Notes under the pieces: model-generated
Database searches by the model: none
Seen by the model: only the letters and a program-made list of their open reading frames with translations
Told to the model about the DNA's origin: nothing
Translations under genes and position numbers: made by a program
Origin: an uncultured Gammaproteobacteria bacterium
Lineage (GTDB): Bacteria; Patescibacteriota; Microgenomatia; 2-02-FULL-39-11
NCBI GenBank assembly: GCA_964520615.1
Contig: CAZFNL010000137.1
Span: 84,898-148,897 of the forward strand
Reading direction: 5' to 3'
DNA length: 64,000 nucleotides
In this document: positions 1,899-38,216 of the stretch, one piece after another
Layout of the letters: each line of letters begins with the position of its first letter
Position numbering within the stretch: the first letter of the stretch is position 1

Positions 1899-1904
1899 AA
1901 ACGA

Positions 1905-4798: not shown

Positions 4799-4876
4799 AA
4801 CTCTCTAATCTAAAAACTCTACAATTATACAATAGAACCTCTCTTCCTGCCCAAAAACATTCCAATTTCTTATTTT

Positions 4877-4938
4877 TAATTCCTAATTCCTAATTCATTA
4901 TTCATAATTCCTAATTCATAATTCCTTATTCTTAATTC
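4877..4938. repeat. Heptanucleotide tandem repeat (TAATTCC/TAATTCA/TTATTCA), about 9 copies, in the divergent intergenic region.
   Basis: Direct reading: taattcc taattcc taattca ttattca taattcc taattca taattcc ttattc ttaattc. It lies between the divergently transcribed carbamoyltransferase operon and rfbF. Confidence 0.85.
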
Positions 4939-4952
4939 AGCAGACAAATAAC

Positions 4953-4981
4953 TTACAACTAAATACTCTTTCTGCTATAAT
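4953..4981 (+). promoter_or_regulatory. Sigma70-like promoter candidate: TTACAA, 17-nt spacer, TATAAT, ending 9 nt before the rfbF ATG (near-leaderless).
   Basis: TTACAA at 4953-4958, a 17-nt spacer, and TATAAT at 4976-4981. The ATG is at 4991. I saw no Shine-Dalgarno sequence. Confidence 0.4.
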
Positions 4982-4990
4982 CCAGGCTAT

Positions 4991-5770
4991 ATGAAGACAA
5001 TCATACTCTGCGGAGGAACAGGTACCAGGCTTAAAGAAGAAACGGAATACAAGCCAAAACCGATGATAAACGTCGGCGGCAAGCCCATCATTTGGCATAT
5101 CATGAAAATATACGCCCACTGGGGCTTCAATGAGTTTATTCTGGCGCTGGGCTATAAGGCCAACTATATCAAGGACTTTTTCCTCAACCAGAAAGCTTTT
5201 ACCACAGACTTTACACTAGAAACAAAAACACACAAAACTTCCTACCACTGGGAGCATAGAAAAGAAGTGGATGATTTCAAAATCACATTTGTCGATACCG
5301 GCATGGATACTCTTCCGGGAGAAAGGATTCTTCTCTGTGAGAGCTACATCCCCAAAAGCGATAAGGATTTTATGGTGACATACGGCGACGGCGTGACGGA
5401 TCTTGATATCGTAAAACTTGTGAAGTTCCACAAGAAACAAAACACAATAGGAACCATAACCGGAATCCATCCCAAATTTAAGTTTGGAGTGGTAAAAGTA
5501 GGAAACAACAATAAGATACAGGAGTTTAAGGAAAAACCATACATGTCTGATTGGGCAAACGGAGGATATATGGTTTTCAAGAGGGATTATTTCAAATACC
5601 AGAAGCCGAAAGAATTGGAACACGCCGCTCTTGCCCGCCTAGCCAAAATTTCACAGCTCTCCATTTACAAACACACAGGTTTCTGGTTTGCTGTCGACAC
5701 TAACAAAGAATATGACCAACTGAACGGCATCTGGGAAAGCGGCAATCCGCCGTGGAAAGTATGGAAGTGA
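4991..5770 (+). CDS. rfbF: Glucose-1-phosphate cytidylyltransferase.
   Basis: 259 aa. MKTIILCGGTGTRLKEETEYKPKPMINVGGKPIIWHIMKIYAHWGFNEFILALGYKANYIKDFF is the canonical RfbF/DdhA N-terminus, and the length is typical. Confidence 0.9.
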   Translation: MKTIILCGGTGTRLKEETEYKPKPMINVGGKPIIWHIMKIYAHWGFNEFILALGYKANYIKDFFLNQKAFTTDFTLETKTHKTSYHWEHRKEVDDFKITFVDTGMDTLPGERILLCESYIPKSDKDFMVTYGDGVTDLDIVKLVKFHKKQNTIGTITGIHPKFKFGVVKVGNNNKIQEFKEKPYMSDWANGGYMVFKRDYFKYQKPKELEHAALARLAKISQLSIYKHTGFWFAVDTNKEYDQLNGIWESGNPPWKVWK

Positions 5771-5774
5771 AATT

Positions 5775-5812
5775 TGGTTATGGGTTGTCGGTTGTGAGTT
5801 GTGAGTGTATTT
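5775..5812. repeat. Heptanucleotide tandem repeat (GGTTGTG-type), 4-5 copies, in the intergenic region after rfbF.
   Basis: ggttatg ggttgtc ggttgtg agttgtg agtgtat, followed by a T6 run. Confidence 0.6.
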
Positions 5813-5860
5813 TTTAGTTCCAACTTTTCTAATTTCTGAAATCTAGAATCTATTTTAATT

Positions 5861-6898
5861 ATGCCGAATAAATACAGAAACATTCTCGTCACCGGTGCCA
5901 CAGGCTTTGTCGGCTCCCACCTGACAGAAGAACTAGTAAAAACAGGAGCAAAGGTTACTGCCACCACTCACCATCCTGTAGCGCGCAATTCCTATTTTGC
6001 CTCAAAGCATCTCGGACGAAAAACAAAAGTGGTACAAATAGAACTGGCTGACTATAAATCAGTTGGAAAGCTGATTTCAGAAACAAAATCTGACTGTATT
6101 TATCACCTGGCCGCCCAACCTGTAGTCGATACAGCTTTCCGGGATCCTAAAGCAACACTATATTCAAATATAGTCGGTACGATAAACCTTCTTGAAGCGG
6201 CAAGAAGATACGGCAAAACCCGAGCAATTGTCATCGCTTCATCGGACAAAGCGTACGGGAAAATGGAACCGGGAATGATGAATAATGAATTAAGAATAAT
6301 GAATACAAAAAAAAATAACTACCAACGACCAACTGCCAACCACCAACTAAAATATATTGAATCCGATCCTCTTCGCGGCGATCATCCCTATGAAGTCTCA
6401 AAATCCTCAGCAGACCTTATCTCCTATTCTTATTTTAAGACTTACGGCCTTCCGGTAACCATTACCCGCTTCGGCAATATTTACGGGGAAGGCGACACGC
6501 ATTTCTCCCGGATCATTCCGGGTATCATGGAGGCAATTGTGAAAAAGAAAACATTTCCTATAAGAAGCAACGGCAAATATATCCGTGACTATCTTTATGT
6601 CAAAGATGTCGTCAGGGGATATATGCTTTTGGCCCAAAATATAGGAAAAACAAAAGGAGAAGCGTACAATTTCGGCTCGGATGAATCGTTGAGTGTAGTA
6701 GATCTGATCAGCCTTCTGGAAAAAGTATTGAAAATAAAGATAAAATATAAGATTCTGGATATAGCCAAAAACGAAATCCCCTACCAGTCGCTGGACTGGA
6801 CCAGAATCAGAAAAACCCTCGGCTGGAAACCCCAATATTCTTTTGCGGATACTGCAAAAAATATTTACCTGTGGTACGCAGGATATTTTCGATCTTAA
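5861..6898 (+). CDS. rfbG: CDP-glucose 4,6-dehydratase-like enzyme (extended SDR) carrying an in-frame insertion of about 26 aa.
   Basis: 345 aa. It has the Rossmann motif VTGATGFVGSHL, then HLAAQPVV, SDKAYGK, the catalytic PYEVSK, and GYMLLAQ. It is adjacent to rfbF. The insertion reads MEPGMMNNELRIMNTKKNNYQRPTANHQLK between the SDK and YxxxK motifs, where RfbG normally has about 15 aa. Confidence 0.7.
   Translation: MPNKYRNILVTGATGFVGSHLTEELVKTGAKVTATTHHPVARNSYFASKHLGRKTKVVQIELADYKSVGKLISETKSDCIYHLAAQPVVDTAFRDPKATLYSNIVGTINLLEAARRYGKTRAIVIASSDKAYGKMEPGMMNNELRIMNTKKNNYQRPTANHQLKYIESDPLRGDHPYEVSKSSADLISYSYFKTYGLPVTITRFGNIYGEGDTHFSRIIPGIMEAIVKKKTFPIRSNGKYIRDYLYVKDVVRGYMLLAQNIGKTKGEAYNFGSDESLSVVDLISLLEKVLKIKIKYKILDIAKNEIPYQSLDWTRIRKTLGWKPQYSFADTAKNIYLWYAGYFRS
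6278..6345. repeat. Intragenic heptamer arrays (ATGAATA x4, then an A9 tract, then ACCAACN x4). These are reverse-orientation relatives of the two intergenic heptamer repeats.
   Basis: atgaata atgaatt aagaata atgaata c aaaaaaaaa taact accaacg accaact gccaacc accaact. The reverse complement resembles the repeat at 4877-4938 and the repeat at 5775-5812. Confidence 0.55.
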
Positions 6899-6901
6899 AA
6901 C

Positions 6902-7846
6902 TCAATTCTTTCTCCTGTGATCATTTATTATCCTCTCGATTATATATGTAGGCCGTTGCTTCACTTCTTCAAAGATTATCTGTATATATTTCCCCAAAAT
7001 ACTGATAGCCAACATCTGCGCTCCGCCGAAAAAGACAATAGAAAGAAGAATGGGGATTTGCGCCCTGATGGGATTACCAATCAGCAATACAGTAAATAAA
7101 TACAATAAAAGAAAAATAAAAGAAAGTAATGTCAGAAAAAATCCTAAAGTTGTCATAACATCCAAAGGTATGAATGTAAATCCAAGAAGTCCCCTTTGAG
7201 AATCTCTAATGTAATCGAAAAATGTATTCTTGCTTCTACCATACTTTCTTGCGGCTCTTTCGTATTCTACTTTGGCTACACGAAAACCTACCCATGCTCT
7301 CAAGCCTCTAAAAAAACGGTTCCTTTCCGGTAAATCATTTATTACATCCAATACTTTCCTATCCAATAGACAAAAACTTCCAGCCTCAAGAGGCATATCG
7401 ATATTTGAAAGTCTTTTAAAAACTAAGTAAAAGGATTTTCTGATTATTGTCATAACCGGAGTATCGTTGATTTTTTTCCTGACTCCGATTACGACCTGAG
7501 CTCCTTTTTCCCACTCATTCACAAACCTTAAAATTATATCGGGAGGATCCTGAAGGTCGCAATCAACTATTGTTAGCGCGTCCCCGATAGCATGCTTCAT
7601 CGCCGCTTGTGAGGAATATTCGGAAGTGAAATTGCGTGACATAAAAAGCGCGGTTGCTTTTTTGTCATTCCGGCAAATTTTTTTTATCACTTCTCTTGAC
7701 TTGTCCAAACTGGCATTATCCGCAAACACTATCTCATAATCATATTTGCCCAATTTCTTCATCGTTTTTACTATTTCTCCATATGCATAGGAAATATTAT
7801 CCTCCTCATTGTAAGTAGGGACTATGATGGATATAGTTTTTTTCAT
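6902..7846 (-). CDS. GT2 polyprenyl-phosphate sugar synthase (GtrB/ArnC/DPM1-like) with a C-terminal 2-TM anchor.
   Basis: 314 aa. ISIIVPTYNEEDNISYAYGEIV..YEIVFADNASLDKS is a GT-A motif with DxD. The C-terminus FIPLDVMTTLGFFLTLLSFIFLLLYLFTVLLIG..ILLSIVFFGGAQMLAISILGKY forms the two TM helices characteristic of GtrB/ArnC. Confidence 0.8.
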   Translation of the reverse strand: MKKTISIIVPTYNEEDNISYAYGEIVKTMKKLGKYDYEIVFADNASLDKSREVIKKICRNDKKATALFMSRNFTSEYSSQAAMKHAIGDALTIVDCDLQDPPDIILRFVNEWEKGAQVVIGVRKKINDTPVMTIIRKSFYLVFKRLSNIDMPLEAGSFCLLDRKVLDVINDLPERNRFFRGLRAWVGFRVAKVEYERAARKYGRSKNTFFDYIRDSQRGLLGFTFIPLDVMTTLGFFLTLLSFIFLLLYLFTVLLIGNPIRAQIPILLSIVFFGGAQMLAISILGKYIQIIFEEVKQRPTYIIERIINDHRRKN

Positions 7847-8643
7847 TGACGGGGAAACTTAAAACTGATTCTTTTCTGGAGCATTTTTAACCTTTTATCA
7901 TCCTCATGACATATTCTCTCGTAATAATTATTCTTATTCCTCAGCCAAAGCAGTTCAAATTCATTGGCAAGTATTATGCCTTCTTCGATTTTTCCGGAAT
8001 TTCTGGTGGTTTTGAAAACTATTTTCCGGGTTTCGTAATAATCAAGAAGTCCTTTCCGGACTAATTTTTGGATAAAAGGTATGGCTTCTTTGGCAATTCC
8101 GCCGCCCATTGCTGTTTTTAAACGCTTTTTTTTAACCTGCTCAAACATATCTTCGGCAATCTTATACATTCCGGGACTATTTATTTCCTCCCGAGAAATA
8201 CCAAGAGATCCGGACATATCCACCCGACCAAGCGTAATCTTCCCAATAAGTTCTAAATTAGGGGAACGTAATATCTCTTTTAGATTCTGGTAGGCCGTGT
8301 AAGTTTCAATATTTACTCCAAAAATTATCCTCTTCATGAGATCTTCCGGGAAATGATAATTTATTGCCTCAAGAAATTTTTTCATGGCATACGCGCTCTC
8401 TACCATAGGAGCAACAAGTCCCGTTACTCCTATATGCTGCGCTTCAAACATGTCGGTGATCGCTTCAGCACCGCCGATTTTCAATACAATTCCCAATTCG
8501 GCTTTCTCAGCAATATCTTTCAATCTCATTGCCTCATGTATTCTGACCGCCTCTGCTTCAAACTCAGCTTTCACTTCACAAACTCCATAACTCTTTTTCA
8601 TTTTTTTAAGCAATAAAACCATTTCCAGTTCCAAATCCTTCAT
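7843..8643 (-). CDS. HpcH/HpaI aldolase or PEP/pyruvate-utilising TIM-barrel family protein (tentative).
   Basis: 266 aa. Motifs GLVAPMVESAYAMKKF, GVNIETYTAYQNLKEIL and ITLGRVDMSGSLGI resemble HpcH/citrate-lyase-beta signatures. I cannot confirm this without a search. Confidence 0.4.
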   Translation of the reverse strand: MKDLELEMVLLLKKMKKSYGVCEVKAEFEAEAVRIHEAMRLKDIAEKAELGIVLKIGGAEAITDMFEAQHIGVTGLVAPMVESAYAMKKFLEAINYHFPEDLMKRIIFGVNIETYTAYQNLKEILRSPNLELIGKITLGRVDMSGSLGISREEINSPGMYKIAEDMFEQVKKKRLKTAMGGGIAKEAIPFIQKLVRKGLLDYYETRKIVFKTTRNSGKIEEGIILANEFELLWLRNKNNYYERICHEDDKRLKMLQKRISFKFPRQ

Positions 8644-8691
8644 TTTATCCTCCTTTGATAAATCATTCGGTTATTATATCGTGTATGCCTA

Positions 8692-9795
8692 TTATATTAG
8701 AAACATCCTGATGATGTCCAAAAAATTACCTAGGTCTTTCTCCAGTTCATCCGCGGTATAATCGGTAATTTTTACCAGAGACATATTTCCCTTCGGCAAT
8801 ACCAAGACCATTTTTTCCGATACTTTTTTCTTGTCCTTATTCATTCCCGAAAGTATGTGACCTTGTATAAAATTTTTTCCGTCAATTTTTAGATTGTCCA
8901 ATTTCAATAAAGGGAAAAAAATATCATCGTTTATCCGTATATTCAGCTTTTTTGACAACCAGCCTTTTCTTACACTTACGCTGTTGGCATAAATCATACC
9001 CAGTAACACTCCTATCCCGTGGGATACGCTAAAGTTTGAAGCAGATTCCAAAGCATGCCCCAGCTCATGTCCGTAATTTAAAAGATTCCGCCTGCCATGA
9101 TCAAACTCATCATTTTCCATATAACTTAATTTTATCCTTATGCAATCTTTTATTATTTCCTCTATATTTTTTTTATCAAAGAAGGACAAAACCTTTTTCA
9201 GTCTTGAGGATATTTCTTCTAACCTGCTTTGCGCGTTTTTATCCATCAAGAGCAATTTAGCAATTTCTCCCATTCCGTTGATAATATCCATCTTTTTCAG
9301 TGTTTTTAAAAATTCCGTATCTATATATATAAAATCCGGCGGGTAAAAAGTACCGATAACATTTTTATACTTATTAAAATTTAGAGATGTTTTTAATCCG
9401 ACGGCACTGTCTGCTTGTGCAAGAAGAGTAGTCGGTATATATATCCAATGGACTCCCCTGTATAAGGTTGAGACGCAATATCCTACTATATCCTGGTTTA
9501 TTCCCCCGCCAAAAGATATCACCGTCAGATTTTTTTTATACGGAAGAGGTAATAGCCATTTATAGATTTTTTCTACTGTCCTTAATGTTTTTCCGCTTTC
9601 GTCAAGTTCTAAAACTAAAAGCTTGCTTTTTTGGAATTTATCAAAAATCCTATTTTTATAAAAACCATAAACTACATTCCCGCAAATTATAACGGAATTC
9701 GGGATATTTTGGAGGTCATCCAAATACTCAAAATTATTTGAGAACCGGACGGTAAAATTTTTTATTGGAGATGTGATGAGAATGTCGCCGTTCAT
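8692..9795 (-). CDS. 3-Dehydroquinate synthase-like sugar-phosphate cyclase (DHQS superfamily).
   Basis: 367 aa. FGGGINQDIVGYCVSTLYRGVHWIYIPTTLLAQADSAVGLKTSLNF..KNVIGTFYPPDFIYID matches the DHQS core, and NYGHELGHALE matches the metal-binding His pair. Confidence 0.75.
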   Translation of the reverse strand: MNGDILITSPIKNFTVRFSNNFEYLDDLQNIPNSVIICGNVVYGFYKNRIFDKFQKSKLLVLELDESGKTLRTVEKIYKWLLPLPYKKNLTVISFGGGINQDIVGYCVSTLYRGVHWIYIPTTLLAQADSAVGLKTSLNFNKYKNVIGTFYPPDFIYIDTEFLKTLKKMDIINGMGEIAKLLLMDKNAQSRLEEISSRLKKVLSFFDKKNIEEIIKDCIRIKLSYMENDEFDHGRRNLLNYGHELGHALESASNFSVSHGIGVLLGMIYANSVSVRKGWLSKKLNIRINDDIFFPLLKLDNLKIDGKNFIQGHILSGMNKDKKKVSEKMVLVLPKGNMSLVKITDYTADELEKDLGNFLDIIRMFLI

Positions 9796-10466
9796 TTGGC
9801 AATAAATCCTCCGTCAATGGGAAGTACGGATCCGGTAATATAAGTATTTTTTTCTGAAACGAGAAAAGAAACCAATTCAGCAATTTCCGCAGCAAACGCA
9901 AATCTTCCCAACGGTATGTCTCCGGCTATTTCCGCATTCTTCCGCGGGGAATTTCTGCCTGTTAAATCAGTAAGGGTAAAACCGGGACACACTGAATTAA
10001 CCAATATATTAAAAGGTGCCAGTTCCAAAGCTAATGCTCTTGTCATACCGTTTATACCGTGCTTTGACGAAGCGTATAAAACCTGTTTGCCCCTTGCGAC
10101 AATTCCAAATATGGAGCTTACGTTTATTATTCTTCCCCATTTTTGCTTTTTCATATACCCAACAACAGAGTTTGCCAAATAAATCGGGGTGATGAGGTTG
10201 ATTCTTAATGTATCCTCTATATTTTTTTTATCCAGTTCTCCTAAATACTGAGGCTGATTTATGCCGGCGTTATTGATCAGTATATCTATCTTCTGACTTC
10301 TTAATTTATTAATATATATTGAAACGGATTGTTCATCGGACAGATCCAGTTCTCCTCTGGATGGCGTTATCAGCAAATATCCCTCTTCTTCAAGTTTTCC
10401 CCTGATTGCTTTGCCTATTCCTCTTGATGCACCGGTCAGAAGAACTGTTCTTTTATTATTATTCAT
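9792..10466 (-). CDS. Short-chain dehydrogenase/reductase (classical SDR).
   Basis: 224 aa. It has TGASRGIGKAI, NNAGI and the catalytic YASSKHG (YxxxK). Confidence 0.85.
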   Translation of the reverse strand: MNNNKRTVLLTGASRGIGKAIRGKLEEEGYLLITPSRGELDLSDEQSVSIYINKLRSQKIDILINNAGINQPQYLGELDKKNIEDTLRINLITPIYLANSVVGYMKKQKWGRIINVSSIFGIVARGKQVLYASSKHGINGMTRALALELAPFNILVNSVCPGFTLTDLTGRNSPRKNAEIAGDIPLGRFAFAAEIAELVSFLVSEKNTYITGSVLPIDGGFIAK

Positions 10467-10471
10467 AAATC

Positions 10472-11398
10472 TTATTGTTCCTTTATTTTAATTTTTCCCA
10501 AATAAGGATCTTTTATTACCATTTCTTTATCAATCATGCCTAAATTTTTTTTATACCAATTATATAAACTTCTTATCCCCTCCGCCAAAGATATCGGTTT
10601 GAAGTCCGGAATTTCCTTCTTCAGCCGCGAAATATCAGCAGTGTATTCCAGATTCATGCCTTTATGCAATATATTGATATCCGATCCGTAATCACTGGCA
10701 GAATTTATAAGCTCAGCAATTTCTACAAGATCTGTTTTTCCTCCGCTTCCTATATTATATACTTTATATTTCGGCTCATGATTGATGAAATAGCTTACTA
10801 TTTTTACCAGATCGTCAATATATAAATAGTCAAATACAACATTCTGGCCTATTTTAATCTCCTGCTTTAAAAGGTTTTTTACAATTGAATTTGATATAAA
10901 CTTAAAAAGATAGTTTTCATATTTCCCGTAGACGCCGAAAAGTCTAAGACAATATATTTTTTCTGATTTTAGCGCAAAGCTGGAACAGACAAATTTATAA
11001 AAGCCGTAATCATCCTTGGGTACCCGCTTTCCGAATTCTTTCTCGCTTATATTTACCAAAGCCCGGCTTTTATCATATTCCGCACCCGATCCGAAATATA
11101 TAAACTTTTCGATTAAATCTTCGCATAAAACAAGATTTATAAAAATCCGCAGATTTACTTCTACGACATTTTTATAATTTCGCGAATCTCTTCCTCCTCC
11201 GGCATTTGCACAATGCAGAATAATTTGAATTTTATTCTTTTTTATAAACTCTCTTAACCGGGAAGAATCCTTATAGTCAAAATCACTATGAGAGGGAGCC
11301 AATATATCAAATTTATCGCTTAAAAATTCCTTTATGTTTTTGCCTATAAAGCCCGATCCGCCTGTCAAAAAAATTTTCTTTTTCACTTTTCCTCCCAA
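10472..11398 (-). CDS. NDP-4-keto-6-deoxyhexose reductase-like enzyme (RmlD/RfbJ/RfbS-like extended SDR).
   Basis: 308 aa. It has the short Rossmann motif IFLTGGSGFIGKNI and a YGxxK region (FGVYGKYENY). It sits next to the ThDP enzyme and the CDP-sugar genes. Confidence 0.55.
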   Translation of the reverse strand: MGGKVKKKIFLTGGSGFIGKNIKEFLSDKFDILAPSHSDFDYKDSSRLREFIKKNKIQIILHCANAGGGRDSRNYKNVVEVNLRIFINLVLCEDLIEKFIYFGSGAEYDKSRALVNISEKEFGKRVPKDDYGFYKFVCSSFALKSEKIYCLRLFGVYGKYENYLFKFISNSIVKNLLKQEIKIGQNVVFDYLYIDDLVKIVSYFINHEPKYKVYNIGSGGKTDLVEIAELINSASDYGSDINILHKGMNLEYTADISRLKKEIPDFKPISLAEGIRSLYNWYKKNLGMIDKEMVIKDPYLGKIKIKEQ

Positions 11399-13224
11399 AG
11401 CGGTATAAGCATATTGCTTTTAAATTCATCACGGGGCAAAAACGGACCCATGTCTTCAAGCGCAGGAGAAACAAACTGCCCGTTGGGTAATTTCCTGGCC
11501 ATCAGTTTAGGATTAAGCGTCAGATTTTTGACAGAGTTTATGACACATACCATCGGGCCTTTACTTTTTAATACATTTTGGATTTTCCTTTTCATATCAC
11601 TATGATTATTTATCTCTATAGCCGGTAATCCATAAGCTTTTGCCACTTTTATAAAATCCGGACAGCTCACTCCAGATTTTTTGTCTACCGCCACGTGTCT
11701 GCCCTCAAACAGATTGTCTTGGGTATTTCTTATGGATTGGTATCCGTCATTATCATAAATAAAAAGCTTTATGGGTAGCCGGTGATGCTTCATCACCTGT
11801 AATTCATGAATATTAAGTTGTATACTGCCGTCACCTTCAAAACAGATAATTCTTTTATTTTTTCCGGAGGCAAAAGCAGCTCCTACTGCCGCAGGCAATC
11901 CGTATCCCATTTGGGCGCAACCGTTGTTCAGAACTATACGCTGTTTGTTCCTGACCCAAAATGCCTGGTATGAACAATTAAGAGGTCCTACACCGTCAGA
12001 AAGTACTATTATTTCGCCTTCGTCAAGCATCGAGCTGATTGTTTCAATAAAACAATAAGGATTTACTGCGTTCTTCTCTTTCCAATACTCAGGTAAAACT
12101 GTTTTATATTTTCGATTAAGCTTTCTCCCGTAGTCCATCCATTTGTTAATCACCAATTTAAAATTCTTCTTGTTTAATTGCTTTATCATTTCAACAATAA
12201 ATTCTTTCGCGTCAACATTTATCTTCAGGTCAGGTGACAATATTGGTTTATCTGTTTCCTTTCTATCAATATCAACCATCACGTGATATGCTTCCCTGGC
12301 AAAAGCCTTATAAGTAAATCCTATAGTCCGAATATCCAACCGTGCTCCGATAGACAGCAGAAAATCACTGTTTTGCAGGATGAAATTGGCAGCTCTTTGC
12401 CCGAAAGCGTGTCCCCTGCCGAAAAAATATTTATTATCAGAAGGAATCAAATCGTATCCGGCATAACTTGTCAGTACCGGAATTTTCAGGAGTTCAACCA
12501 GCTTTAAAAATTCTCCGGCAGCTGCCGACAGCCGGATGCCGTTGCCCGCATACAGAACCGGGCGTTTGGAATGGCTTAATCTAAATATGGTTCGTGAAAC
12601 CAGCTTCGACAAAAGTAGTTTTTTATCATCTTCTGAAGGCAATTTCAGTTCTTCACCAGGAACAAATCTCTTTAACTTTCCTTTTTCTATATACCAACCT
12701 TGTATATCCAAAGGTATATCAAGCCAAGCCGGACCCGGCCTGCCTGATTTTGCCATATATACGGCCTTCTCCAGATGATATCTGATATCATCCGGCTTCA
12801 GGACTGTCACGGCATATTTTGTAATCGGCTTTACCATGTCAATGATATTTATTTCCTGATCTCCCAATTGCCGGGATATTTTTCCTGCCCCCATAGTTTC
12901 TCTTTTTACTTGTCCGGATATTATCAGCATGGGAATGGAATCAAGCCAGCCGCCAAGGACTCCCGTAATCGCATTGGTTCCTCCGGGCCCTGTGGTCACA
13001 AGACACACGCCCAAATTCCCTGAAATCCTCGCGTAAGCTTCCGCGGCTGTGGCACAAGCTTGTTCGTGATAGTTGCAGATATATTTCAGTTTTCCTGCTT
13101 TTCCTATAGAATCAACAAGGTGAATATTTCCGCCGCCTGATATAAGAAAAATGTGGTTTACTCCCAAATTTTCGATGAAACTGATAATGTAATCAGATAA
13201 CTTTATTTTAACCATGGCACTCAA
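11383..13224 (-). CDS. ThDP-dependent acetolactate-synthase-like enzyme, a candidate YerE-type NDP-4-ketosugar two-carbon branching enzyme.
   Basis: 613 aa. The TPP_enzyme N-domain is NHIFLISGGGNIHLVDS..CLVTTGPGGTNAITGVLGGWLDSIPMLIISGQV. The C-terminal ThDP motif is EGDGSIQLN..YDNDGY. There are no ilvN or ilvC neighbours, and it is embedded among CDP-deoxysugar genes. Confidence 0.75.
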   Translation of the reverse strand: MSAMVKIKLSDYIISFIENLGVNHIFLISGGGNIHLVDSIGKAGKLKYICNYHEQACATAAEAYARISGNLGVCLVTTGPGGTNAITGVLGGWLDSIPMLIISGQVKRETMGAGKISRQLGDQEINIIDMVKPITKYAVTVLKPDDIRYHLEKAVYMAKSGRPGPAWLDIPLDIQGWYIEKGKLKRFVPGEELKLPSEDDKKLLLSKLVSRTIFRLSHSKRPVLYAGNGIRLSAAAGEFLKLVELLKIPVLTSYAGYDLIPSDNKYFFGRGHAFGQRAANFILQNSDFLLSIGARLDIRTIGFTYKAFAREAYHVMVDIDRKETDKPILSPDLKINVDAKEFIVEMIKQLNKKNFKLVINKWMDYGRKLNRKYKTVLPEYWKEKNAVNPYCFIETISSMLDEGEIIVLSDGVGPLNCSYQAFWVRNKQRIVLNNGCAQMGYGLPAAVGAAFASGKNKRIICFEGDGSIQLNIHELQVMKHHRLPIKLFIYDNDGYQSIRNTQDNLFEGRHVAVDKKSGVSCPDFIKVAKAYGLPAIEINNHSDMKRKIQNVLKSKGPMVCVINSVKNLTLNPKLMARKLPNGQFVSPALEDMGPFLPRDEFKSNMLIPLWEEK

Positions 13225-13297
13225 CTTCCCAGAATTAATTGGATAAAAAAACTTCCTTACTGCATCAATAGTGTTTCTGGTATTATAATACGTTATT

Positions 13298-14356
13298 GTG
13301 GTTAATAAAAAGTCAAGAAATTGCCCAATCTGTAATTACCAATCAAATTTTCCCATTTTTACCCAGAAGTTTGCCGGCGGGCTTGAACATAAAATCGTAG
13401 TATGCGATAACTGCGGTTTCGTATTTGTAAAATATACATACGACCGGAAAACAGCTAACAAACATTATAAAAAAAATTCAAAATATAATCACGGCCGGGA
13501 TGAAAATCTGCATGAAATATACGCAAAAATTATACAGCAATATTGTCCTCCAACCTCTAAGATACTTGACGTAGGCTGTTCAGACGGACATTTATTGTAT
13601 CTTTTAAGACAAAAGGGTTTTAAGAGCCTTGATGGTTTTGATCCCAGCCCTCAATGCCAAATAGCCGCATCTAGAAAATACAAAATAAAAATACGAACGG
13701 CCGAACTCTACTCTTTTGACACCCGGAGAAAATACGATATTATTATTCTTGCCCAAGTTTTAGAACATCTGGTTGATATAAAACAGGCAATTCAAAAACT
13801 TTCTTCAATACTTTCCGGAAATGGCTACTTTTTTATCGCCTTGCCTGATGCAGATAATTTTTATAAGGATTTCGAAGAACCTTTCTATGAATTCTCTCTT
13901 GAGCATATTAATTTTTTTGGTGTTTCTGCCCTTCACGCTCTCATGCATGACTTTCAGCCTATCCATTTCACCTCGGACGGTAAAGTAATTTTTTCCCTTT
14001 GGCAAAAAAGCGGAGGTGTCAGGAATTCACTAAAAAAATATATCCGGCTGTCAAAGGCAAAAATGGCCAGGATAAACAGAGTAATCGACAATTGCCCTGA
14101 CAGATTAATAGTCTGGGGAGCCGGATCGCTCACGGAAAGGCTTTTCACTTCCACAAAACTTGCCCAGAAAACTATCAAATTAGCAGACAGAAACTTGAAT
14201 TTGGCGGGTAAAAAGCTGATAGGAATAGAGATCATCCCTCCGGAAAAGCTCCGAAGCTATAAAGAACCGGTACTCATATCCTCATTCCGCTTTAAGGACG
14301 AGATTCTCAAGGATATAAAAAAAATGGGTATAAAAAATAAAATAATTACGTTTTGA
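13298..14356 (+). CDS. NDP-sugar C-methyltransferase-like protein (TylCIII/NovU architecture): Zn-ribbon, class-I SAM methyltransferase, then a C-terminal Methyltransf_14-like domain. It has a GTG start.
   Basis: 352 aa. CPICNYQ..CDNCGFVF is a Cys4 ribbon. LDVGCSDGHLL and IIILAQVLEHL form the SAM fold. The C-terminus LIVWGAGSLTERL..IGIEIIPPEKL..VLISSF resembles the C-methyltransferase C-terminal domain. Confidence 0.7.
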   Translation: MVNKKSRNCPICNYQSNFPIFTQKFAGGLEHKIVVCDNCGFVFVKYTYDRKTANKHYKKNSKYNHGRDENLHEIYAKIIQQYCPPTSKILDVGCSDGHLLYLLRQKGFKSLDGFDPSPQCQIAASRKYKIKIRTAELYSFDTRRKYDIIILAQVLEHLVDIKQAIQKLSSILSGNGYFFIALPDADNFYKDFEEPFYEFSLEHINFFGVSALHALMHDFQPIHFTSDGKVIFSLWQKSGGVRNSLKKYIRLSKAKMARINRVIDNCPDRLIVWGAGSLTERLFTSTKLAQKTIKLADRNLNLAGKKLIGIEIIPPEKLRSYKEPVLISSFRFKDEILKDIKKMGIKNKIITF

Positions 14357-14369
14357 AATCAATAAACAT

Positions 14370-15071
14370 TTATTTTGCAAAGCGTAAAAGAAGAATGCCT
14401 ACCAGATTTCTAAAGGCAATTGATGGAATTTTATCTAGTGTATAGACTTTTGTCTTATCACCACGTTGAGTCTTACGGTGATGTATCGGTATTTCATTTA
14501 TGGATAATTTAGCTTTAATAGCCACAGCTATAAAACCCCACCAAAACCCTTCATTTAAATAAGAAAGATACTTTGTGTAAGATAAGATTGCCCTCCTCTT
14601 GAATAAAACAAAAGGAGCGGATGGATCGTGTATTGATGCAGAAAAAAGTAATTTATAGATTATTCGGAAAAAAAGAGAAAAAACTTTTCTTTGTAGAGGA
14701 TCGGACCTTCTCCGTCTCCAACCTATCAGTATGTCTGCCGACATTCTCTTCTTCCAAAACTTGGGAAAATCTTCCGGATTGCATTGGCCGTCAGAATCGA
14801 CACAAAGTAAAAACTCTGACTGTGCGGACTTTATACCATCCAATACTGCACTACCGTAACCTCTCCTTTTCTTTTTCTGATTGAGGCTAATAGGATAATT
14901 CAATTTTAGTTTTTTTAATAATTCTTTTGTTCCATCAGTTGAACCATCCTCGCAAATTATGAAATTGAAACGGATTTTGTTTTTATCGAGAAAAATTTTC
15001 CATTCCGAAAGGACATATTCTATAACTTCTTTTTCATCATACACAGGCAAAATTATTGATAGTGAACTCAT
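14370..15071 (-). CDS. Glycosyltransferase family 2.
   Basis: 233 aa. LSIILPVYDEKEVIEYVL..ICEDGSTDGTKELL and CVDSDGQ (DxD). Confidence 0.75.
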   Translation of the reverse strand: MSSLSIILPVYDEKEVIEYVLSEWKIFLDKNKIRFNFIICEDGSTDGTKELLKKLKLNYPISLNQKKKRRGYGSAVLDGIKSAQSEFLLCVDSDGQCNPEDFPKFWKKRMSADILIGWRRRRSDPLQRKVFSLFFRIIYKLLFSASIHDPSAPFVLFKRRAILSYTKYLSYLNEGFWWGFIAVAIKAKLSINEIPIHHRKTQRGDKTKVYTLDKIPSIAFRNLVGILLLRFAK

Positions 15072-15135
15072 CTTAATGTAAAATCAATTTCTTTATATAA
15101 TTGTCATGTATTATAATACAAAGTTAATATAATCT

Positions 15136-16386
15136 ATGCCTTCCGATATATCATTTGTCCCGGGAAAGACTTATATTCCAGCCTCTGGGAAAGTATTTGG
15201 CGAAAACGAAATAGAAAATGCCGTATCAGCCGCCCGTGAGGGATGGTGGACGGAAGGTCATTTTGCCAAAGAATTTGAAAAGGAATTCTCCCGCTTTTTG
15301 GGCGTGCGCTACGTTTCACTGGTCAACTCCGGCTCCAGTGCCAATCTGACCGCTTTATTTTCCCTGACTTCGAGAGTTTTTGGAGAAAGAAGTTTGAAAA
15401 GAGGCGATGAATTTATTACAGGAGCTGTCGCCTTCCCCACAACCGTCAATCCCGGCATCATCTTTGGTATGACACCGGTCTTTGTGGATGCTGATCTTTC
15501 TTCTCTTAATATTAATACGGAAAAAATTGAAAAAGCCATCACCAAAAAAACAAAACTTATTATGGCAGCCCACACCCTAGGCAACCCCTATAATCTGGAT
15601 AAAATAGTGGCACTAGCCAAAAAATACCATCTATGGTTGATTGAGGACTGCTGTGATGCCTTGGGAAGCCGTTATGAAGGGAAACTTGTGGGAACATATG
15701 GCGATATATCCACATTCTCCTTTTATCCTGCTCACCAGATTACCATGGGTGAAGGCGGAGCAGTCGTTACCAATAACCCCCTTATCCACCGCTCCATACG
15801 TCAATTCCGCGACTGGGGCAGGGACTGCTGGTGCGATACAGGAAAGGATGATACTTGCGGCAAGCGGTTTGGTTGGAAAATGGGAGAACTGCCCGCAGGT
15901 TACGACCATAAATATATCTACTCCCAGATAGGTTTTAACCTGAAACTTACGGATTTCCAGGCGGCAATCGGCCTGGCACAACTTCAAAAATTGCCGCAAT
16001 TTATAAAAAAAAGGAAAGAAAATTATAAAGAACTATTTAAATTCTTTCGAAGATATAATAAGTTTTTTGAGCTTCTTACAACAACAGATAAAGAAGATCC
16101 TTGCTGGTTTGGCTTTCCTCTTCTTGTCAAGAAAGACGCACCGTTTACCAGAAATCAGCTCACAGAGTATCTGGAAAAAGAAAAAATAGGTACCAGAAAT
16201 GTCTTTTCAGGAAACCTTCTTCGGCACCCGGCATATCTGAAAATAAAATACAGGACTGCAGGAAAGATTGTCAACGCAGATCACGTGATGAACAGGGCAT
16301 TCTGGTTGGGAGTTTTTCCAGGAATAAATTTTGAGATGATAGAATATATCAAAAAGACTATCGAAAAATTTCTTAAAAGATTCTGA
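15136..16386 (+). CDS. ddhC: CDP-6-deoxy-L-threo-D-glycero-4-hexulose-3-dehydrase (E1; DdhC/RfbH/AscC-like), of the DegT/DnrJ family.
   Basis: 416 aa. FYPAHQITMGEGG has His where aminotransferases have the Schiff-base Lys, which is the E1 hallmark. The cysteines in IEDCCDALG..(57 aa)..DCWCDTGKDDTCGK form C-X57-C-X1-C-X7-C, the E1 [2Fe-2S] motif. Confidence 0.85.
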   Translation: MPSDISFVPGKTYIPASGKVFGENEIENAVSAAREGWWTEGHFAKEFEKEFSRFLGVRYVSLVNSGSSANLTALFSLTSRVFGERSLKRGDEFITGAVAFPTTVNPGIIFGMTPVFVDADLSSLNINTEKIEKAITKKTKLIMAAHTLGNPYNLDKIVALAKKYHLWLIEDCCDALGSRYEGKLVGTYGDISTFSFYPAHQITMGEGGAVVTNNPLIHRSIRQFRDWGRDCWCDTGKDDTCGKRFGWKMGELPAGYDHKYIYSQIGFNLKLTDFQAAIGLAQLQKLPQFIKKRKENYKELFKFFRRYNKFFELLTTTDKEDPCWFGFPLLVKKDAPFTRNQLTEYLEKEKIGTRNVFSGNLLRHPAYLKIKYRTAGKIVNADHVMNRAFWLGVFPGINFEMIEYIKKTIEKFLKRF

Positions 16387-19178: not shown

Positions 19179-19242
19179 TAAGTAAAGAGTGAGCTCTCCA
19201 GGTTAAAGCCCGGAGATTTCTGCGAAGGATTAAAACAAAGGT

Positions 19243-20190
<948 letters not shown>

Positions 20191-21304: not shown

Positions 21305-21308
21305 AAAT

Positions 21309-33160: not shown

Positions 33161-33162
33161 AT

Positions 33163-36452: not shown

Positions 36453-36454
36453 TT

Positions 36455-38215: not shown

Positions 38216-38216
38216 T

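Follow-up and report, generated by a model that had tools for sequence, protein, structure and literature searches.

In the scheme described for acyl-branched sugars, an aldolase provides a 4-hydroxy-2-oxo acid, a ThDP-dependent enzyme couples it to CDP-4-keto-3,6-dideoxyglucose, and a reductase step follows (PMC9306805; PMC12247030). The R. palustris version of this scheme also includes a SAM methyltransferase (PMC9306805; PMC12247030). An aldolase gene beside the ThDP gene marks a longer 4-hydroxy-2-oxo acid donor, as for erwiniose, caryophyllose and gastriose, and ErwE rejects pyruvate (PMC9306805). Pyruvate is the substrate of YerE (PMC12247030), and is also used by the YerE-like enzyme JanthE (PDB: 8RPH; PMC12188165).

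The window analysed here, a stretch of DNA of 64 kb, encodes what we read as a near-complete route to an uncommon surface sugar: a 3,6-dideoxyhexose to which a thiamine enzyme attaches a carbon branch. On the sequence evidence given below, we regard it as moderately probable that the cluster serves the biosynthesis of a CDP-activated 4-C-acyl-branched 3,6-dideoxyhexose of the erwiniose/caryophyllose class, possibly C-methylated, which would then be loaded on polyprenyl phosphate and used by the island's GT-C transferases. A scan of the 64 kb gave at least 13 ORFs of GT-C type. The ORFs listed in an initial annotation are all present with exact coordinates, and family profiles, PDB similarity and motifs largely bear out their family assignments, but four ORFs inside the interval had been left out (6902-7846, 7843-8643, 8692-9795 and 14370-15071). 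Three of these overlooked genes, for an aldolase, an enzyme of family TIGR04425 and a polyprenyl-phosphate GT2, suggest a long branch carrying several hydroxyl groups, not a two-carbon one as in yersiniose.

Genes for the CDP-keto-sugar acceptor

The ORF at 4991..5770 (+ strand) encodes an RfbF/DdhA-like glucose-1-phosphate cytidylyltransferase, an enzyme that makes CDP-glucose. It matches TIGR02623 over its full length (257 bits, E-value = 1.7e-76), below the 300-bit cut-off, with the next-best family at 85 bits. The ORF at 5861..6898 (+ strand) encodes an extended SDR of the RfbG/DdhB-like kind, divergent and with some 30 aa inserted, which is probably the CDP-glucose 4,6-dehydratase. Its best NCBIfam match is the model for that activity (TIGR02622, 199 bits, under the cut-off of 278), it exhibits a Ser-Asp-Lys motif (SSDKAYG) and Y177-EVS-K181, and the RfbG-like partner is always paired with RfbF in related loci. 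Its identity to classical DdhB is only 27-32%. We put the assignment no higher than probable because the PDB similarity is ambiguous, being about equal for CDP-tyvelose 2-epimerase (141 bits), RmlB (117 bits) and DdhB (1RKX, 114 bits). RfbF, the RfbG-like protein and the DHQS-like and GT2 proteins described below all score under the cut-offs of their curated families.

The ORF at 15136..16386 (+ strand) corresponds to E1, the PMP- and [2Fe-2S]-dependent CDP-4-keto-6-deoxyglucose 3-dehydrase (RfbH/DdhC/AscC). Judged by its sequence, it is a genuine E1 dehydrase: it exceeds the cut-off of the RfbH model NF011936 (634 against 423 bits), scores 497 bits against the Yersinia E1 (3BCX; 52% identity over 407 aa) versus 193 bits against ColD, aligns His200 with His220 of the Yersinia enzyme, and reproduces the iron-sulfur motif C-X57-C-X1-C-X7-C with Cys173, Cys231, Cys233 and Cys241. 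It thus goes with RfbH and not with ordinary DegT aminotransferases, and the CDP-3,6-dideoxyhexose route that had been claimed for this locus is indeed encoded. As also reported before, the window exhibits no E3/FNR-like ORF, either in a scan of all ORFs of at least 120 aa or in a motif scan. In the proposed acceptor route, RfbF would make CDP-glucose, the RfbG-like enzyme would convert it to CDP-4-keto-6-deoxyglucose, and E1 would take off the 3-OH with electrons from a reductase encoded elsewhere, yielding CDP-4-keto-3,6-dideoxyglucose.

The thiamine enzyme and the adjoining minus-strand genes

The ORF at 11383..13224 (- strand) encodes a YerE-like ThDP-dependent carboligase, the putative branching enzyme, with three ThDP domains and canonical motifs (Glu54 in YHEQ; GDGS...NDG). 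Its best PDB match is JanthE, with 440 bits against about 250-260 for AHAS. Its score against the AHAS model is 367 bits, below the cut-off of 538, and a tree places it among ddh-linked homologues, with E. coli IlvI far off on a long branch. Acetolactate synthase was rejected as its identity on these three observations; no grouping with IlvB/IlvG was seen, and ORF scans of the 64 kb identified neither IlvN nor any other branched-chain amino-acid gene.

Overlapping this gene by 16 nt, the ORF at 10472..11398 (- strand) encodes an extended-SDR NDP-sugar reductase of 308 aa (Pfam Epimerase, 89 bits, and RmlD_sub_bind; motifs GGSGFIG and Y131GFYK), for which we propose the role of a YerF/ErwF-like side-chain ketoreductase. 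The reductase gene directly follows the ThDP gene in several related loci (L003-L005, L007, L013, L015, L029, L035, L040, L041) and lies one gene further in L039. The earlier proposal of a YerE-like carboligase beside dideoxyhexose genes is therefore retained, with the addition of a translationally coupled reductase.

The aldolase ORF at 7843..8643 (- strand) is a divergent member of the HpcH/HpaI family of class II (metal-dependent) pyruvate aldolases, and may make the 4-hydroxy-2-oxo acid donor. It matches PF03328 with 28 bits, and its family profile matches YfaU and HpaI (E-value = 5e-5). The top folds for its AF2 model (pLDDT 91.6) are SbnG, HpaI and YfaU (TM about 0.6). The fold is confirmed, and so are the metal ligands, which correspond to the invariant Glu113 and Asp142; an invariant Lys55 occupies the place of the catalytic Arg of HpaI (numbering of the 266-aa ORF).

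The ORF at 8692..9795 (- strand) encodes a 3-dehydroquinate synthase (DHQS)-like enzyme of family TIGR04425 (348 bits, cut-off 400) rather than aroB (245 bits, cut-off 305); its orthologues in L008 and L011 exceed the TIGR04425 cut-off. All catalytic, metal-binding and phosphate-binding residues are identical to those of E. coli AroB, and this full DHQS active site suggests that the enzyme acts on a DAHP-like ulosonate phosphate. Translationally coupled to it is the gene of a classical FabG-like SDR at 9792..10466 (- strand; adh_short 144 bits; motifs TGASRGIG, NNAG and Y131ASSK). Since most related loci have this gene beside the DHQS-like one (L035 has it after the ThDP-reductase pair instead), the SDR more probably belongs to donor synthesis, as a ketoreductase, and not to the sugar pathway where it had been placed.

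Conservation of the cassette and the nature of the branch

With the ThDP protein, 32 loci were retrieved from other genomes. E1 homologues were located no more than 10 kb from the ThDP gene in 17 of the 32, and RfbF homologues in 21; the others are mostly short contigs. The clustering of the ThDP gene with E1 and RfbF is not due to chance. The ThDP-linked loci span Bacteroidota, Patescibacteria, Gammaproteobacteria, Burkholderiales, Lentisphaerota, Planctomycetota and one Micrarchaeota archaeon. The whole cassette of ThDP enzyme, reductase, SDR, DHQS-like enzyme and HpcH-like aldolase is kept in at least 10 other loci (L003, L004, L008, L010, L011, L022, L035, L039, L040, L041), some of them from CPR bacteria and one from a DPANN archaeon. 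In L039 it is directly preceded by genes for an ErwJ-like acetaldehyde dehydrogenase and an ErwI-like 4-hydroxy-2-oxovalerate aldolase, which both exceed their curated cut-offs, and for a further, ErwE-like ThDP enzyme. From this tandem it follows that the cassette holds the place of a donor-synthesis cassette, and it is because of its conservation and of this tandem in one locus that we read the cluster as belonging to the erwiniose/caryophyllose class. In L035, L040 and L041 an FSA/TalC-like gene lies within the cassette, and L035 has a true PEP carboxylase, which fits a supply of sugar phosphate and of a C3/C4 keto acid.

Pyruvate and a sugar phosphate are, in our proposal, the building blocks of the donor keto acid. 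The sequences show family identities and gene linkage; from these we infer all substrates, the succession of the donor steps and the structure of the end product as follows. The HpcH-like aldolase would join pyruvate and an aldehyde to a 4-hydroxy-2-oxo acid; more specifically, the aldehyde may be a tetrose 4-phosphate, giving a DAHP-like 3-deoxyheptulosonate 7-phosphate. The DHQS-like enzyme would eliminate the phosphate through its NAD+/metal redox-elimination chemistry, and the FabG-like SDR would reduce the methyl ketone to 2-oxo-4,5,6-trihydroxyheptanoate. This donor would be decarboxylated by the YerE-like enzyme and added to the C4 ketone, after which the YerF/ErwF-like reductase would reduce the side-chain ketone. 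The methyltransferase described below may act on a carbon adjoining a keto group, and polyprenyl phosphate would receive the sugar from the GT2. The C6 side chain predicted in this way (1,3,4,5-tetrahydroxyhexyl) shares its skeleton with the branch of caryophyllose, whose structure is quoted in PMC5706390. Several observations weigh against our reading: the scores under curated cut-offs, the low identity of the RfbG-like protein to DdhB and its similarity to CDP-tyvelose 2-epimerase, the lack of an E3 gene in the window, Lys55 of the aldolase, the use of pyruvate by JanthE, and the cassettes of L035, L040 and L041, which have no E1 within 10 kb.

The initial annotation had favoured a two-carbon branch as in yersiniose. 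Worked out for the full gene set, this would mean that the ThDP enzyme would use pyruvate, the acetyl group would be reduced to hydroxyethyl by the reductase, and the aldolase, DHQS-like enzyme and SDR would serve another product of the island. Such a branch would agree with the use of pyruvate by YerE (PMC12247030) and by JanthE (PMC12188165), to which the ThDP enzyme is closest among solved structures, and with the many related loci that have the ThDP gene and ddh genes without an aldolase (e.g. L012, L017, L018, L023-L026, L032). We nevertheless consider it unlikely. The three genes sit close together in a single operon, with some overlaps, flanked by the ThDP-reductase pair on one side and the GT2 on the other; the gene order of the cassette recurs across phyla and domains; and the characterised clusters with an aldolase beside the ThDP gene have a long donor, ErwE being unable to use pyruvate (PMC9306805). 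A long branch is preferred because aldolase, DHQS-like and SDR genes form a conserved cassette adjoining the ThDP gene.

The enol-pyranose intermediate of DHQS cyclises spontaneously, so that a linear donor requires interception by the SDR; the complete set of DHQS residues would be expected to yield the carbocycle dehydroquinate, which counts against such a donor. The DHQS-like enzyme may thus be a true cyclase and the product may contain a carbocycle, either with a dehydroquinate-like cyclohexanone as the ThDP acceptor, or with a DAHP-like phosphorylated chain that would be joined to the sugar first and closed to a ring afterwards, giving a cyclitol-branched sugar. The curated name of TIGR04425, which includes "phospholyase (cyclizing)", the acceptance of cyclic ketones by YerE-like enzymes (PMC12247030) and the cassettes without E1 within 10 kb in L035, L040 and L041 are in line with this proposal, which we find slightly more doubtful than a two-carbon branch. 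ThDP homologues are far more widely linked to ddh genes than to DHQS-like genes, and the general acceptor is therefore the CDP-keto-sugar; moreover, dehydroquinate is no 2-oxo acid. The enzyme also keeps Lys221 and Arg235, which we take to be the carboxylate ligands of DHQS, against a substrate with a sugar in place of the carboxylate. We know of no natural product of the cyclitol-branched or dehydroquinate-derived kind.

Finally, an ordinary unbranched 3,6-dideoxyhexose of the abequose, paratose or tyvelose type, with the 308-aa SDR as 4-ketoreductase and the ThDP enzyme as an unrelated acetolactate synthase, is highly improbable: RfbF, the RfbG-like protein, E1, the reductase and a distant TyvE-like gene do resemble the classical rfb set, but the ThDP protein scores too low for the AHAS model and groups with JanthE and ddh-linked homologues, its gene overlaps that of the reductase, and the 64 kb lack IlvN and other branched-chain amino-acid genes.

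Methyltransferase, glycosyltransferases and other neighbours

The ORF at 13298..14356 (+ strand), divergent from the ThDP operon, encodes a TcaB9/TylC3/MtmC-like NDP-keto-sugar C-methyltransferase composed of a Zn ribbon, a SAM domain and a C-terminal domain. Its N-terminus exhibits CPICN...CDNCG (CxxC...CxxC), and its family profile matches MtmC (4RV9, E-value = 3.5e-17, positions 30-335) and TcaB9. The top 18 Foldseek matches of its AF2 model (pLDDT 93.3) are all sugar C3-methyltransferases. Residues Y76, H181, E224 and H225 of TcaB9 correspond to Y57, H157, E202 and H203, and Y222 is replaced by Ser200. The protein thus has its three-domain fold, and four out of five residues of the active site, in common with the sugar C-methyltransferases TcaB9, MtmC and KijD1, in agreement with the TylCIII-type enzyme announced earlier.

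The last gene of the minus-strand operon (6902..7846, - strand) encodes a GT2 polyprenyl-phosphate sugar transferase of the PgfS/ArnC/GtrB-like type (PgfS model 222 bits, ArnC model 132 bits, both below cut-off), with hydrophobic segments near the C-terminus (residues ~220-280). L003 and L039 have this gene at the corresponding place, and L005-L007 and L013 have it downstream of the ThDP gene. Another GT2 glycosyltransferase (14370..15071, - strand; Glycos_transf_2, 75 bits) lies between the methyltransferase and E1, an arrangement repeated on the independent contigs L001 and L002. Convergent with E1, the ORF at 16411..18066 (- strand) encodes a polytopic membrane protein with at least eight hydrophobic segments and no match in a Pfam scan, tentatively a GT-C-type transferase; it neighbours E1 on L001 and L002 too. 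An extended SDR similar to CDP-tyvelose/paratose-2-epimerases, at most a possible member of the pathway, is encoded at 56763..57794 (- strand; motifs STNKVYG and YGCSK). No NCBIfam model passed for this protein; in L010, a 46%-identical homologue follows the ThDP gene at a distance of about 1.6 kb.

The nucleotide-sugar acceptor arm

The seven ORFs that the initial annotation placed in the cluster (4991-16386), as well as the ORF 56763-57794, are all present in the window with exactly the same ends. The RfbF ORF (4991-5770, plus strand) aligns end-to-end with the glucose-1-phosphate cytidylyltransferase family (TIGR02623, 257 bits, cut-off 300), the runner-up family scoring 85 bits. The following RfbG-like ORF (5861-6898, plus strand) encodes an extended SDR, for which the top curated family is CDP-glucose 4,6-dehydratase (TIGR02622, 199 bits, under the cut-off of 278). 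An insertion of about 30 residues splits this match into two stretches, and the protein exhibits 27-32% identity to classical DdhB sequences (from the homologous loci L023 and L026, and others). It possesses the motifs 'SSDKAYG' and 'YEVSK' (Y177), that is, the Asp-Lys dehydratase variant also seen as 'TTDKCYD' in the Paraburkholderia DdhB. The Asp-Lys pair after the Ser/Thr residue is catalytic in CDP-glucose 4,6-dehydratase, as in the Yersinia and Salmonella structures. Since the scores against PDB sequences (TyvE 141 bits, RmlB 117, DdhB 114) fail to separate dehydratases from epimerases, the sequence makes 5861-6898 only a probable CDP-glucose 4,6-dehydratase.

The E1 ORF (15136-16386, plus strand) exceeds the cut-off of the RfbH model (NF011936, 634 against 423 bits), with PseC next at 211 bits. 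Its best PDB match is the Yersinia E1 (3BCX, 497 bits; 52% identity over 407 residues), followed by ColD (193 bits) and, at lower scores, aminotransferases. In the Yersinia E1, His220 takes the place of the PLP-binding lysine. The motif 'FYPAH200' of the window E1 is aligned with 'FYPAH220' of 3BCX, and the H220K mutant (3BB8) has a lysine in that column. The residues Cys173, 231, 233 and 241 reproduce exactly the spacing C-X57-C-X1-C-X7-C and are aligned with Cys193, 251, 253 and 261, the [2Fe-2S] ligands of the Yersinia enzyme. The E1 hallmarks noticed in the initial annotation are thus borne out, and the grouping with ordinary DegT aminotransferases that would speak against them is not seen, because of the RfbH score, the histidine at position 200, the cysteine spacing and the level of identity. 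Judged by these sequence features, 15136-16386 is a genuine E1.

As already noticed in the initial annotation, the 64-kb window lacks an E3: there is no ORF of the [2Fe-2S]-FNR type, and motif scans of the window and of related loci returned nothing credible. Neither was an E3 found beside ddhABC in the Paraburkholderia locus L023. The electrons for E1 must come from a protein encoded elsewhere. SpnQ, an enzyme related to E1, works with general cellular ferredoxin or flavodoxin reductases. The missing E3 leaves a gap in the pathway and is no refutation of it. In L023 (11858-15883, Paraburkholderia phymatum), ddhA, ddhB, ddhC, a reductase gene and a ThDP gene are directly followed by ORFs putatively of the pseudaminic-acid type (PseC-like aminotransferase, PseG-like, acetyltransferase and NeuB/PseI-like), as judged from their translations only.

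The ThDP-dependent enzyme and its operon

The ThDP gene heads one compact minus-strand operon between the RfbG-like and ThDP genes. In operon order this contains the ThDP gene (11383-13224), an extended SDR gene (10472-11398, overlapping the ThDP gene by 16 nt), a classical SDR gene (9792-10466), the genes for a DHQS-like protein of 367 aa (8692-9795, 4-nt overlap) and an HpcH/HpaI-like protein of 266 aa (7843-8643), and finally a GT2 gene (6902-7846, 4-nt overlap).

The ThDP enzyme exhibits the three expected domains (TPP_enzyme_N, _M and _C), the catalytic Glu54 ('YHE54Q') and a canonical GDGS(464)...NDG motif. Its score against the AHAS equivalog TIGR00118 is 367 bits, under the cut-off of 538. 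The closest PDB structure is JanthE (8RPH, 440 bits, about 37% identical along its whole length), whereas AHASs reach 250-260 bits and the YerE homologue PpYerE (5AHK) only 260 bits. In a rough neighbor-joining tree, a long branch separates E. coli IlvI from JanthE and the homologues of the window enzyme. Neither an IlvN-like or ACT-domain ORF nor any gene of amino-acid biosynthesis was found in the window, in contrast to the ilvI-ilvH pair of E. coli. An identity as AHAS is thus rejected on scores, tree and context. The initial annotation had likened the enzyme to YerE, with the reservation that it might group with IlvB/IlvG and be accompanied by IlvN; given the AHAS score, the JanthE match, the tree and the window context, this reservation falls away. 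By its sequence, 11383-13224 is a YerE-like carboligase and no acetolactate synthase.

JanthE of Janthinobacterium sp. HH01 is a ketone-accepting YerE-like enzyme with a broad range of donors including 4-hydroxy-2-oxovalerate, the natural substrates of which are unknown (PMC12188165). It differs from the window enzyme by its unusual CDG in the ThDP motif. When one genome per species was scanned, 32 loci were found to encode a ThDP homologue at 41-64% identity, apart from one outlier at 30%; the top homologue (64%) is from a Bacteroidota MAG. These loci belong to Bacteroidota, Patescibacteria, Gammaproteobacteria, Burkholderiales, Lentisphaerota, Planctomycetota, Myxococcota and one Micrarchaeota archaeon. 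In 17 of the 32 loci, a true homologue of E1 is encoded no more than 10 kb from the ThDP gene, and 21 loci have an RfbF homologue; the remainder are mostly short contigs. A regular expression for the GDG/CDG motif did not match the ThDP homologues of the loci L016, L017, L018 and L019, which may harbor a further motif variant, as JanthE does with its CDG.

The HpcH-like protein (7843-8643) lies barely above the threshold of Pfam PF03328 (28 bits, cut-off 25), and a single-sequence search of the PDB returned no match for it. In the PDB, a profile of 12 orthologues matches YfaU and HpaI, both of them class II pyruvate aldolases. Its AF2 model (pLDDT 91.6) has the TIM-barrel fold of the HpcH/HpaI family, the best Foldseek matches being SbnG, HpaI, YfaU and HpcH (E-value from 3.5e-9 to 1e-7, TM about 0.6). 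The invariant acidic residues Glu113 ('NIET') and Asp142 ('GRVD') are aligned with the metal ligands in 'VQVES' and 'IGPADLS' of YfaU/HpaI. The position of the catalytic Arg70 of HpaI is occupied by an invariant lysine ('LKIGG' against 'LVRIP' of 3QZ6). This suggests a non-canonical member of the HpcH/HpaI family, in which the lysine could be functionally equivalent to the arginine.

The DHQS-like protein (8692-9795) scores 348 bits against TIGR04425 (cut-off 400) and 245 bits against the aroB model TIGR01357 (cut-off 305). TIGR04425, described as an "AroB-related putative sugar phosphate phospholyase", has the status of a "hypothetical equivalog" and lacks an assigned function. Its cut-off is passed by the syntenic orthologues from a Micrarchaeota MAG (L008, 406 bits) and from Geobacteraceae (L011, 401 bits), others scoring 360-391 bits; on account of this synteny, the window protein is a divergent member of the orthologous group to which these sequences belong. 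Despite only about 26% identity to E. coli AroB, thirteen residues are invariant between AroB and 11 sequences of the group (R112, D128, K134, N144, E176, K179, K221, R235, N239, H242, H246, H258 and K322). These positions are the catalytic, metal-, phosphate- or carboxylate-binding residues of DHQS; all catalytic, metal-binding and phosphate-binding residues of AroB are identical in 8692-9795. No shikimate gene was found in the window, where the DHQS-like gene forms part of a sugar operon. The score under the equivalog cut-off and this context speak against an identity as AroB. Unlike aroB, the gene belongs to a nucleotide-sugar operon, and in the cassette loci it is always accompanied by the SDR and the HpcH-like aldolase.

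The candidate donor cassette

The acyl-branched sugars that YerE-like enzymes produce are rare, and those described, such as yersiniose, erwiniose and caryophyllose, are surface antigens involved in host interaction. The enzymes themselves are sought as biocatalysts for chiral tertiary alcohols. In the yersiniose A pathway of Yersinia pseudotuberculosis (DdhA-D, YerE, YerF), YerE uses pyruvate as donor and creates a C2 branch (PMC12247030). The window cluster resembles this pathway in the acceptor arm and in the pairing of ThDP enzyme and reductase. It differs in that the yersiniose route involves no aldolase, DHQS-like enzyme or SDR, and in that Yersinia encodes an E3 (DdhD).

Erwiniose, caryophyllose and gastriose are made by a yersiniose-like route, in which an aldolase of the cluster provides a longer 4-hydroxy-2-oxo acid to the ThDP enzyme; the enzyme ErwE does not accept pyruvate (PMC9306805). 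The erwiniose cluster of Pectobacterium atrosepticum encodes ErwE (ThDP), ErwF (reductase), ErwI (aldolase) and ErwJ (acetaldehyde dehydrogenase) along with the ddh genes (PMC9306805). Common to this and the window cluster are the ddh genes leading to CDP-4-keto-3,6-dideoxyglucose, an aldolase for the donor, and a ThDP enzyme with a reductase for the branch. In contrast, the window aldolase is of the HpcH/HpaI and not of the DmpG/BphI type, and there is no acetaldehyde dehydrogenase. The window cluster also includes a DHQS-like enzyme and an SDR, from which the donor is predicted to be a deoxygenated polyol of greater length. The hosts differ as well, an enterobacterium for erwiniose and probably a CPR bacterium for the window.

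Caryophyllose synthesis in Mycobacterium marinum involves MMAR_2331 (a required protein of the aldolase/citrate-lyase family), MMAR_2332 (ThDP) and MMAR_2333 (GT), and a related cluster of R. palustris CGA009 includes a SAM methyltransferase (PMC9306805). The C6 side chain of caryophyllose is a 1,3,4,5-tetrahydroxyhexyl group with a terminal methyl (structure as quoted in PMC5706390). As in the caryophyllose genes, an HpcH-type gene adjoins the ThDP gene in the window; the two aldolases are likened by family description, and the side-chain skeleton that we predict is equal. A methyltransferase is shared with the R. palustris cluster, the window one being of the TcaB9 C-methyl type. The caryophyllose literature that we examined mentions no DHQS-like gene and leaves the origin of the deoxy aldehyde unexplained. 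A search for caryophyllose or branched sugars together with dehydroquinate retrieved nothing relevant. More than 200 YerE-like clusters were reportedly surveyed in silico by Krug et al. in 2024, and the cassette may already have been noted there. Because of the ddh, aldolase and ThDP logic of erwiniose, caryophyllose and gastriose, the window cluster belongs to the known kind of acyl-branched-sugar clusters; as far as the literature examined goes, the new element is the DHQS-like enzyme and the SDR in the donor arm.

The genes of this cassette (ThDP enzyme, extended SDR, classical SDR, DHQS-like enzyme and HpcH-like aldolase) recur together in the homologous loci L003, L004, L008, L010, L011 and L022, and in four contigs retrieved through DHQS-like homologues (L035, L039, L040 and L041). 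Full synteny, including the GT2, RfbG, RfbF and a fragment of E1, is observed in L003 from a Bacteroidota MAG. The classical SDR gene adjoins the DHQS-like gene in most cassette loci, whereas in L035 it comes after the ThDP-reductase pair. The gene of the extended SDR directly follows the ThDP gene in most loci; it comes one gene later in L039 and before the ThDP gene in L010 and L011. The loci lacking a DHQS-like gene either retain an HpcH-like gene (L006, L019, L021) or have neither. No E1 is present within 10 kb of the cassette in L035, L040 and L041, so the acceptor may keep its 3-hydroxyl there.

The most telling locus is the metagenome contig L039 (ERZ27237587 k141_1861570, 1-12926). It encodes an acetylating acetaldehyde dehydrogenase and a 4-hydroxy-2-oxovalerate aldolase, both over their curated cut-offs, together with a ThDP enzyme; these three genes are arranged as ErwJ/ErwI/ErwE are for erwiniose. 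Directly downstream lies a window-type cassette with a ThDP enzyme of its own, and an E1 is found upstream. The window-type cassette thus occupies the place of a donor cassette, and the two cassettes in tandem predict that one organism makes two different branched sugars. The contig from a Micrarchaeota MAG (L008; JAKAJC010000007.1, 4204-11827) brings together E1, RfbF, RfbG-like, HpcH-like, SDR, DHQS-like and ThDP genes, by which the cassette crosses the boundary between bacteria and archaea among ultra-small organisms. In all, the cassette is found across CPR bacteria and in one DPANN archaeon.

Considering these data, we propose the following route. The aldolase would form a DAHP-like 3-deoxyheptulosonate 7-phosphate from pyruvate and a tetrose 4-phosphate; where a PEP carboxylase is present, the enolate may alternatively derive from oxaloacetate. 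A bona fide archaeal-type PEP carboxylase is encoded in L035. The DHQS-like enzyme would then oxidize C5, eliminate the phosphate and reduce C5 again, and the classical SDR would reduce the C6 methyl ketone of its product. From the resulting 2-oxo-4,5,6-trihydroxyheptanoate, the ThDP enzyme would remove CO2 and join the remainder to C4 of CDP-4-keto-3,6-dideoxyglucose, after which the extended SDR would reduce the new side-chain ketone. The predicted outcome is a 3,6-dideoxy-4-C-(1,3,4,5-tetrahydroxyhexyl)hexose, the skeleton of caryophyllose (PMC5706390); the prediction concerns the skeleton only and claims nothing on stereochemistry. As a tentative proposal, to which we ourselves give clearly less than even chances, the HpcH aldolase, the TIGR04425 enzyme and the FabG-like SDR would constitute an undescribed route, in which a DHQS homologue acts as a non-cyclising, phosphate-eliminating deoxygenase and pyruvate and tetrose phosphate are turned into a 3,7-dideoxyheptulosonate, the C7 donor for caryophyllose-type twelve-carbon sugars.

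A real rival to this linear route is that the DHQS-like step yields a carbocycle. The DHQS intermediate cyclises spontaneously to dehydroquinate, and this is the weak point of the linear donor. Another order of reactions, with the DHQS-like enzyme acting on the bare tetrose phosphate ahead of the aldolase, is ranked lower because the residues that bind the carboxylate of DAHP are conserved in the DHQS-like enzyme. We also considered that the DHQS-like enzyme might cyclise sedoheptulose 7-phosphate supplied through the FSA/TalC-like gene, which is found within the cassette of L035 (in the segment 7606-10000), L040 (8466-9332) and L041 (5762-6622). In these three loci, the FSA/TalC-like protein scores 123-148 bits against the FSA model, below its cut-off. 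Among the PDB matches of the DHQS-like protein, however, the cyclases ValA and DDGS score lowest (90 and 85 bits), compared with 108-142 bits for DHQSs.

If the linear route is correct, it would account for the unexplained terminal deoxy group of caryophyllose-type side chains and provide TIGR04425 with a function; it would also predict such sugars, attached through a polyprenyl-phosphate/GT-C route, in the envelopes of many CPR bacteria and of some DPANN archaea. To our knowledge, nothing is known of the envelope glycans of these organisms. The donor cassette offers a concrete and testable function for TIGR04425 and could explain the deoxygenated polyol chain of caryophyllose-type sugars. The class of acyl-branched sugars is extended to a probable uncultivated CPR bacterium and, via the homologous clusters, to a DPANN archaeon.

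Predicted methylation and export, and the glycosylation island

The methyltransferase ORF (13298-14356, plus strand) starts with a CxxC...CxxC arrangement (CPICN...CDNCG). Its single-sequence match to TcaB9 is weak (27 bits). A profile of 38 family sequences matches MtmC over positions 30-335 and TcaB9 over positions 25-303, MtmC being labelled in the PDB as D-mycarose 3-C-methyltransferase. With the structural model (pLDDT 93.3), the best 18 Foldseek matches are all sugar C3-methyltransferases (MtmC, KijD1, TcaB9); these matches are full-length (about 410 columns) with E-values better by about 8 orders of magnitude than those of generic methyltransferases. The residues Y76, H181, Y222, E224 and H225, which have been mutated in TcaB9, correspond to Y57, H157, S200, E202 and H203, four of the five being identical. 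Pfam PF08421 and PF08484 were not detected in 13298-14356; PF08484 is on record for two distant homologues. In the loci L005-L007, the methyltransferase homologues come after the ThDP-reductase pair.

Motif, profile and fold agree on a Zn ribbon, a SAM domain and a C-terminal domain, in keeping with the TylCIII/NovU architecture that the initial annotation had seen in this protein. These elements, with the equivalents of Tyr76, His181, Glu224 and His225, are common to TcaB9, MtmC/TylC3 and KijD1. The window protein differs from them in its length (352 aa against about 416), in the low identity of 13-16% and in the serine replacing Tyr222. Its substrate is likely CDP-linked, in contrast to the dTDP-linked substrate of TcaB9-type enzymes. 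Given the fold matches, the profile and the four conserved active-site residues, the modelled protein likely carries out C-methylation next to a keto group. The suggestion of a branched and/or C-methylated, yersiniose-like sugar is to be kept in part: a branched 3,6-dideoxyhexose is supported by E1 and the ThDP enzyme, and by the methyltransferase it is probably also C-methylated, whereas the C2 branch of yersiniose is unlikely in view of the aldolase/DHQS-like/SDR cassette.

The GT2 at the end of the operon (6902-7846, minus strand) is PgfS/ArnC-like and has C-terminal membrane segments, features which suggest transfer of the sugar to polyprenyl phosphate. Together with the GT-C genes, this GT2 suggests delivery of the sugar outside the membrane by a polyprenyl-phosphate carrier, unlike in classical O-antigen assembly. 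A polytopic membrane protein with no family match adjoins E1. The remainder of the window is a glycosylation island, the GT-C set of which comprises nine PMT_2 ORFs (seven in tandem), two YfhO-like, two PTPS_related and one PIG-V-like ORF, besides many GT2 and GT4 genes and one flippase gene. Since the named homologues are mostly from Roizmanbacteria, Gottesmanbacteria and Levybacteria, the host is probably a CPR bacterium of the Microgenomates type.

The seven consecutive PMT_2-type GT-C paralogues (29928-42416, minus strand, about 540-616 aa) are interrupted only by an ORF of 292 aa with eight membrane segments (39862-40740), and two further PMT_2 ORFs are located at 52740-54116 and 61900-63393. 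The YfhO-like, PTPS_related and PIG-V-like proteins are encoded at 25091-26743, 43529-45844, 58521-60254, 60262-61899 and 22025-23221. A small PgfS/GtrB-like GT2 is found near each such GT-C, which suggests several parallel pairs of polyprenyl-phosphate sugar and GT-C.

Other sugar genes surround the cluster. Just upstream of RfbF lie a GT4 (1905-3092) and a NodU/CmcH-type carbamoyltransferase (3089-4798), the latter being a hint that an O-carbamoylated sugar is part of the same glycan. At 18123-21989, a second small module of sugar genes contains two extended SDRs followed by a GT2, a DUF2304 protein and another GT2; one of the SDRs (19243-20187) is GDP-fucose-synthase-like with 288 bits, below the cut-off of 500. 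A flavin amine-oxidase-like protein with a weak match to UDP-galactopyranose mutase is encoded among GT genes (27484-28974). The segment 54109-57794, about 40 kb from the ddh genes, is possibly another nucleotide-sugar module, with a cupin (54109-54513), a GT2, an extended SDR with an internal insertion (55614-56738) and a TyvE-like epimerase (56763-57794).
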